From: Escherichia coli
GTDB taxonomy: Bacteria; Pseudomonadota; Gammaproteobacteria; Enterobacterales; Enterobacteriaceae
Direction: 5' to 3' (one strand)
DNA length: 64,000 nucleotides
NCBI RefSeq assembly: GCF_022846255.1
Contig: NZ_AP025682.1
Shown: one piece after another, positions 29,978 to 30,373 of the stretch
Position numbering within the stretch: the first letter of the stretch is position 1
How the letters are laid out: every line of letters starts with the position of its first letter
Translations under genes and position numbers: made by a program
The notes under the pieces: model-generated
The model's input: only the letters and a program-made list of their open reading frames with translations
What the model was told of the DNA's origin: nothing
Database searches by the model: none

Positions 29978-29979
29978 GT

Positions 29980-30125
29980 ACACCTTTCCAGATACGGGAG
30001 GCGAAGTCATTTCTTCCTTCGCCCTGGTGGCAATCTTTACAAGCATTGTCACGGCCAAAGCACCGTATCAGTTGACCCAGGTGCAGAGGCTAGAGTGTTT
30101 AGTGGTTAAGCCGATACTAGCGTGT
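29980..30125 (-). promoter_or_regulatory. moaA 5' leader; expected location of the Moco riboswitch RNA motif
   Basis: Long GC-structured leader directly upstream of moaA; assigned from known biology of the E. coli moaA leader, boundaries approximate and not folded. Confidence 0.5.
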
Positions 30126-30153
30126 AAATGAGATTTTTACCATCCACACTTTC

Positions 30154-30177
30154 GCTATGTAATCATGTATATAGCGT
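30154..30177. promoter_or_regulatory. ModE-like palindromic site in moaA promoter (cgctatgtaatcatgtatatagcg)
   Basis: Inverted repeat CGCTAT...ATAGCG with TAT-rich core resembling the modA operator; moaA is a known ModE target. Confidence 0.45.
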
Positions 30178-30373
30178 CATGATCGTGCTATTTCGCTACA
30201 GAATAAGGGAAAATGGCGGTTTTACTTTGATATACATCATCAGGGATGCATAGCGTGCATCGTCCTTTAGAGGTAGAAGAAAATAGTTTGTATCCTCAAT
30301 ATTGGCAGGTTAATTGCTGTTTCCTCGCAATTTGCGCTACTGTAGCGCGGATAATCTGACTCCAGGAAACTAT

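Follow-up and report, generated by a model that had tools for sequence, protein, structure and literature searches.

The moaA-ybhK spacer of Escherichia coli: a known multi-input control region of moaABCDE, probably back-to-back with an independent ybhK promoter

The moa locus and its described relatives

The closest described system is the moaABCDE promoter and leader of E. coli K-12 (Anderson et al. 2000; Regulski et al. 2008; Patterson-Fortin et al. 2013), which is the identical locus. Its transcription starts S1 and S2, its ModE and FNR sites, its Moco aptamer and the sequestration of its Shine-Dalgarno sequence correspond one-to-one to elements of the DNA described here, and strain-level single-nucleotide polymorphisms (SNPs) are the sole difference. 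A second relative is the modA operator, which shares with the moa ModE site a CG-TATAT-N7-TACAT-A-CG palindrome and has 17 of 24 bases identical to it. However, the modA operator is located about 25 nt upstream of the modA start, whereas the moa site is located upstream of the S1 -35 region with its centre at -57.5; moreover, according to the literature the modABC operator represses, whereas the moa site activates. The gene divergent from moaA, ybhK, belongs to the same family as Bacillus subtilis glmR (yvcK), which it can complement. Nevertheless, the genomic context and regulation of these two genes are unrelated: glmR is part of a yvcJ-glmR-whiA operon, while ybhK of Enterobacteriaceae stands alone, divergent from moaA. 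The promoters of nrfA and nirB are controlled by FNR plus NarL/NarP, with an FNR site near -41.5 and a 7-2-7 site near -70 to -75. Compared with promoters of this type, the candidate 7-2-7 element at moa has a poor second heptamer and is known from its sequence.

The window (the whole 64-kb stretch of DNA that was analysed) is E. coli chromosome, and 5424 of the 5426 complete E. coli genomes contain its positions 29900-30450 with no less than 95% identity. The moaA gene, encoding GTP 3',8-cyclase and standing first in moaABCDE, occupies 28988-29977 on the minus strand, as supported by its open reading frame, its Pfam domains (Radical_SAM and Mob_synth_C) and RefSeq; its product has 329 amino acids, its ATG is at 29977, and moaBCDE are next in line. 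On the plus strand, ybhK (yvcK) occupies 30374-31282 and encodes a protein of 302 amino acids that is identified by TIGR01826 (YvcK), PF01933 (CofD) and the RefSeq product name, and that shares its entire sequence with the YbhK protein from E. coli UTI89 (100% identity). RefSeq annotates a near-identical locus as riboswitch, moaA and yvcK. Both the open reading frame coordinates and RefSeq agree with the initial annotation that the two genes diverge from a spacer of 396 nt (29978-30373). K-12 coordinates were carried to the window through the moaA ATG (U00096.2 816,267 corresponds to window 29977, with the orientation reversed). Between 29900 and 30450, five SNPs (30041, 30109, 30247, 30325 and 30397) distinguish the window from a K-12 derivative, all five lying outside the core of the riboswitch, the ModE and FNR sites and the hexamers of the promoters; position 30041 belongs to a variable loop of the aptamer and 30109 is its first, unpaired base. 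Since the five SNPs miss every functional element, a failure of K-12 moaA genetics to transfer to the window allele is unlikely.

For the comparison with relatives, a scan of reference genomes with YbhK yielded 80 loci from Enterobacteriaceae and Erwiniaceae. We assign a probability of roughly 0.85 to the reading in which the spacer serves as the already known control region of moaABCDE, with its several inputs, and is arranged back-to-back with an independent ybhK promoter. The elements, their positions and their occupancy rest on this analysis or on the cited K-12 experiments.

Leader, promoters and regulator sites of moaA

A Moco riboswitch had been expected in the moaA leader, and a covariance-model search bore this out. 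The full-length match to RF01055 at 30109-29965 (minus strand) scored 103.4 bits in cmscan, where the gathering threshold is 36 (E = 1.2e-24), and spans model positions 1-135 of 135; it coincides with the riboswitch annotated by RefSeq and was the sole Rfam match in the region, even at E <= 1. The aptamer is located on the moaA strand in the 5' leader, downstream of both mapped moaA starts, and reaches into the AUG. The cmscan alignment includes the long P3 hairpin GGGCGAAGGAAGAAAUGACUUCGCCU, which places the element in the Moco class as opposed to the Tuco class. P1 masks the Shine-Dalgarno sequence just ahead of the AUG with its 3' strand, GGUGUA (29984-29979), and this closing helix also takes in the AUG itself (29977-29975). 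A translational expression platform built into the aptamer has been described for E. coli, and Moco-dependent repression of moaA is supported by genetic evidence obtained with the K-12 leader (Regulski 2008). CsrA binds two sites within the moaA aptamer and activates translation. Matches to RF01055 were found in all 20 diverse enterobacterial loci tested, with scores of 65-104 bits.

Term-seq detected a stable RNA 3' end 8 nt into moaA (Adams 2021; U00096.3 817052), which the coordinate transfer made in this analysis places at window 29969 (minus strand), with matching flanking sequence. A moaA fusion was elevated more than 2-fold in a rho R66S mutant and is hence Rho-sensitive (Adams 2021). 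The 3' end at 29969 implies that S1 yields abundant transcripts of about 139 nt that comprise the riboswitch only.

The proximal, ModE-dependent start S1 is positioned at 30107 (minus strand) by the construct of Regulski 2008, which begins at AACCACTAAACAC as +1, and by the transcription start site (TSS) map of Kim 2012, where the moaA +1 at 816,137 corresponds to window 30107 and is represented by 177 reads with a 5'UTR of 130 nt. The -10 hexamer TAGTAT (30119-30114) and the -35 region TGGTAA (30142-30137) were read from the sequence, and the -10 region is conserved in a multi-genus alignment. The distal, FNR-dependent start S2 was set at 30194 (minus strand) from its position at -87 relative to S1, as given in Regulski 2008, which cites Anderson 2000. 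Its -10 hexamer TATTCT (30205-30200) was likewise read from the sequence and belongs to a conserved region. A simple sigma-70 consensus scan of 29900-30450 returned no promoter, as the real ones are weak and depend on activators.

The inverted repeat CGCTATGTA/TATATAGCG at 30153-30176 forms the palindromic ModE operator CGCTATATACATGATTACATAGCG (minus strand), recognized by the pattern TATAT-N7-TAYAT and by its conservation. The core TATAT-N7-TACAT is exact at 30157-30173, and the minus strand reads CGC-TATAT-ACATGAT-TACAT-AGCG. The ModE-like palindrome of the initial annotation is real and represents an exact ModE operator motif, while the coordinates given for it (30154-30177) were one base off. 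TATAT-N7-TAYAT occurs twice in the 64 kb against 0.13 expected, and the other occurrence (51709-51725) is the modA operator, which serves as an internal positive control for the motif. The centre of the moa operator, 30164.5, is at -57.5 from S1 and directly upstream of the S1 -35 region; activation of S1 by ModE is reported in Regulski 2008, citing Anderson 2000, to which the report of molybdate-ModE binding in K-12 is likewise credited. Among the 80 loci, 78 contain the ModE motif with at most one mismatch. The window also harbors the ModE system, namely modA (50912-51685, minus strand), modE (52130-52918, plus strand) and modF (52974-54458, plus strand). The modA operator CGTTATATTGACGCCTACATAACG spans approximately 51706-51729, and a FliA-type GCCGATAT motif is present near 51790.

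The palindromic FNR site TTGATATACATCAT at 30227-30240 has a single mismatch to TTGAT-N4-ATCAA, a pattern that at this stringency has six matches in the window against 2.4 expected. The identical 14-mer is the FNR motif under a K-12 ChIP-seq peak (Myers 2013), and a ChIP-chip FNR peak spans the site (Grainger 2007). Its centre, 30233.5, is at about -39.5 from S2, compared with the canonical class II position of -41.5; S2 was transferred from the published -87 numbering, and the older mapping is imprecise enough to cover a difference of 2 bp. The FNR and ModE sites are spaced 69-71 bp apart in 66 of the 70 loci compared. In an alignment of 23 genera, the conserved blocks on the moaA side are the aptamer, the -10 and -35 regions of S1, the ModE site, the -10 region and start of S2, and the FNR site.

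Past the FNR site, 65 of 73 loci share a further conserved block, CATCGTCCTTTAGAGGTAG (30258-30276), whose distance from that site is constant. It contains a NarL/NarP-like 7-2-7 sequence, TACCTCT-AA-AGGACGA (30260-30275, minus strand), centred 34 bp upstream of the FNR site, which is a candidate nitrate co-activator site for S2. This is the only match with up to two mismatches in the 64 kb, where 2.27 such matches are expected per 64 kb and about 0.014 per spacer. Of 65 loci, 49 have a first heptamer that agrees with TACYYMT. The second one matches poorly (AGGACGA vs AKRRGTA), and conservation falls on CGA, which are not the bases expected to be kept in a NarL heptamer. NarL/NarP binding at moa was not found in the accessible literature. 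We consider it possible, at somewhat less than even odds and judging by sequence, that the block at 30260-30275 is a NarL/NarP site that gives nitrate co-activation of S2. The gene moaA has been listed as 'Activated by FNR in NO3-', and such a site, if real, would explain this reported nitrate-dependent activation.

The ybhK promoter and the case for shared regulation

The initial annotation had placed the ybhK promoter within the same spacer, and the K-12 start maps there. Kim 2012 reported the ybhK TSS at 815,894 (minus strand of K-12), equivalent to window 30350, with a 24-nt 5'UTR and a matching upstream 50-mer; this position rests on 22 reads from a single study. The sigma-70-type core promoter (30314-30350, plus strand) consists of a -35 element TTGCTG (30314-30319) and a -10 element TACTGT (30338-30343) separated by 18 bp, with TACTGT seven bases upstream of the start at G 30350. 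A check of the 24-nt leader sequence identified a Shine-Dalgarno sequence AGGAAA at 30364-30369. The -10 element retains TAnnnT in 73 of the 80 loci. The ybhK start is 156-243 bp from the moaA starts (30350 vs 30194 and 30107), and back-to-back promoters at this distance could be coupled via transcription-induced supercoiling.

The designation of ybhK as a gene of unknown function did not hold. YbhK scores 353.3 bits with TIGR01826 (YvcK; cut-off 196) and 281.7 bits with PF01933, whereas its match to the true CofD model TIGR01819 is weak (28.9 bits vs a cut-off of 257). Together with the complementation of a B. subtilis glmR mutant by E. coli YbhK, this identifies YbhK as a member of the UDP-GlcNAc-binding YvcK/GlmR family with a CofD fold.

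The divergent arrangement of moaA and ybhK was found in 78 of the 78 loci with enough flanking sequence, with spacers of 288-613 nt, and is compatible with synteny and with function alike. A fixed placement of the ModE and FNR sites with respect to moaA but a variable one with respect to ybhK was not borne out: distances to ybhK are tightly clustered as well, in two classes that are 56 bp apart, and hence do not discriminate between the two genes. In the multi-genus alignment, a segment of about 56 bp (30277-30331) is restricted to Escherichia, Salmonella and Citrobacter. It lies between the conserved block at 30258-30276 and the ybhK -10 element, parting the FNR/ModE block from the core promoter; its presence puts the FNR site at -116.5 instead of about -60.5 from the start of ybhK. 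Where this segment is missing, as in 43 loci, the FNR centre is at -59.5 or -60.5 with respect to the ybhK start inferred there, near a class I position. Combining these positions with the 69-71 bp spacing places ModE at about -130 in the same genera. In Escherichia alone, the 56-bp segment carries the -24 element of a sigma-54 motif. In E. coli strain 774, an IS4-family ISVsa5 element is inserted in the moaA-ybhK spacer (3370-4578 of that locus, approximately window 30255) and splits the half containing the FNR site, the ModE site and the riboswitch from the ybhK promoter, a natural case in which the two parts are separable. In Klebsiella pneumoniae, homologues of basS, basR and eptA (b4112-b4114) are located between uvrB and ybhK (Kim 2012 supplement); what lies downstream of ybhK thus varies, whereas its moaA flank stays the same.

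These two distance classes can be combined with the NarL/NarP-like block in a joint reading that we hold to be unlikely. A single FNR site would serve both genes in the genera lacking the 56-bp segment, which are the majority among Enterobacteriaceae, acting from a class II position at moaA S2 and from a class-I-like position (-60.5) at ybhK; the insertion would then have uncoupled the two genes in the E. coli clade, Escherichia would have gained a sigma-54 site, and 30258-30276 would be an undescribed NarL/NarP site.

A quite unlikely alternative is that ybhK is mainly sigma-54-dependent and is transcribed from TTGGCAGGTTAATTGCT (30302-30318, plus strand), with a site for an enhancer-binding protein in the spacer, and that the ModE/FNR region may be architectural DNA. 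The pattern match (GG at 30304-30305, GC at 30316-30317) agrees with the consensus, as does the TGGCA-N6-TTGCW-type element TGGCAGGTTAATTGCT at 30303-30318. A ChIP-seq peak of sigma-54 (OS05, FAT 4) has been reported in K-12, and a predicted sigma-54 promoter for ybhK is listed in RegulonDB and EcoCyc. Moreover, sigma-54 promoters are silent without their activator, and a single TSS map could miss such a start. However, a sigma-54 start would be expected near 30329, about 12 nt past the GC element, whereas the mapped start at 30350 is 33 nt past C 30317. No genus outside Escherichia has the -24 GG, Salmonella and Citrobacter included, whereas the TAnnnT of the sigma-70-type -10 element is conserved. 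The -12 half of the motif overlaps the TTGCTG read as the sigma-70 -35 element, and its conservation in Salmonella and Citrobacter may be due to this overlap. Consensus sequences for NtrC, GlrR, NorR and IHF had no match upstream of the motif, in 30060-30302. The reported occupancy is also low, and the authors of the ChIP-seq study note that many sites are bound yet inactive.

Two other signals in the spacer were considered. The FliA (sigma-28) motif TAGAGTG...GCCGATACT at 30091-30118 (plus strand) is a published ChIP-seq site (FAT 2) that is antisense to the moaA leader. Its -10 element, GCCGATA, overlaps the S1 -10 element (TAGTAT, on the other strand), and its conservation is explained by the S1 -10 region. 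Expression of ybhK was 46 in the wild type vs 46 in the delta-fliA strain. Within this motif, the window has A at 30109 and K-12 has T. The GATGCATAGCGTGCATC palindrome (30245-30261) was rejected as an enhancer or transcription factor site, as it is not conserved even among Escherichia and its spacing is wrong for NtrC and NsrR. It has the 8-mer GCTATGCA in common with the AtoC half-site, with 10 of 20 positions identical overall. It forms a perfect 6-5-6 palindrome in the window strain only, K-12 having G at 30247 and other Escherichia differing more, and is probably due to chance. Elsewhere in the window, a naRNA4/CssrE Rfam match (RF02564, 72.7 bits) at 9671-9741 (plus strand) resembles REP/BIME-type sequences, and a related ES036 match is found just downstream of ybhK in E. 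albertii (4001-4042 of that locus).

The initial annotation had proposed that ybhK may be co-regulated with molybdenum cofactor synthesis. This would require that ModE and/or FNR in the shared spacer also control its promoter, which we regard as very unlikely. Both promoters are indeed contained in one 396-nt spacer, with a divergent arrangement in all 78 loci with enough flanking sequence, and the two palindromic sites could in principle face either direction. However, the centres of the ModE and FNR sites in E. coli are at -185.5 and -116.5 from the mapped ybhK start, outside the usual positions of activators at sigma-70 promoters. The geometry thus argues that both sites are too distant and that ybhK is not in the ModE regulon. 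Moreover, FNR was bound here in glucose minimal medium, and neither operon changed in an FNR-dependent manner; moaA was named the likely target (Myers 2013). A response of ybhK to molybdate or ModE was not found in the accessible literature mentioning ybhK. Outside this clade, ybhK homologues are not beside moaA: distant homologues taken from a representative genome library, with 59, 56 and 49% identity, adjoin atp/hflKC, perM/queA and icd/msrA, respectively, which indicates that the adjacency reflects lineage synteny. Furthermore, the YvcK/GlmR family acts in the metabolism of amino sugars and cell-wall precursors and is not known to be linked to Moco. Site distances, the data of Myers 2013, the distant homologues and the identity of YbhK thus leave the proposed co-regulation unsupported, though not disproved. 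We infer that ybhK is independent of ModE and FNR in E. coli, the argument for ModE being one of geometry. The sole geometry that could allow the proposal is that of the loci without the 56-bp segment, which would involve FNR rather than ModE and would not apply to E. coli.

The possibility that chance alone produced a ModE-like palindrome and an FNR-like sequence in this AT-rich intergenic DNA, where short AT-rich motifs are frequent and the one-mismatch FNR pattern is not rare, is practically nil and already refuted by conservation and ChIP data, given the scarcity of the ModE pattern and its second occurrence in the authentic modA operator, the FNR-ModE spacing fixed across genera and the occupancy by FNR in K-12.

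Integrated control and significance

Under the favoured reading, of an established moaABCDE control region with an independent ybhK promoter behind it, the inputs would be layered as follows. During anaerobiosis, FNR bound at 30227-30240 would activate transcription from the distal start S2, while molybdate-ModE, bound beside the -35 region at 30153-30176, would activate the proximal start S1. Nitrate may further co-activate S2 through the NarL/NarP-like 7-2-7 element. Both transcripts include the 145-nt Moco aptamer. When Moco is plentiful, P1 would pair with the Shine-Dalgarno sequence and block translation of moaA, a block that CsrA bound in the aptamer would counteract; untranslated moaA RNA would end early, through Rho-dependent termination with a 3' end at 29969. 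On the other side, ybhK transcription begins at 30350; its sigma-70-type promoter (TTGCTG-18 bp-TACTGT) is weak, and the -10 element of this promoter is conserved across Enterobacteriaceae. The Escherichia-only sigma-54 site overlapping the -35 element and the weak FliA site farther upstream both leave the mapped start unexplained.

The riboswitch, the ModE site, the FNR site and both moaA promoters are established in K-12 and are not new. The value of the present analysis is a base-level map that gives a known role to each of the strongly conserved moaA-side blocks and a conserved promoter of its own to ybhK, so that sharing a spacer does not here support sharing a regulon. Two small leads remain: the possible NarL/NarP site, and the clade-specific 56-bp indel that repositions FNR with respect to ybhK. 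If the joint reading built on them were true, a YvcK/GlmR regulator of cell-wall precursors would be tied to anaerobiosis, and Moco synthesis would be given a nitrate input.
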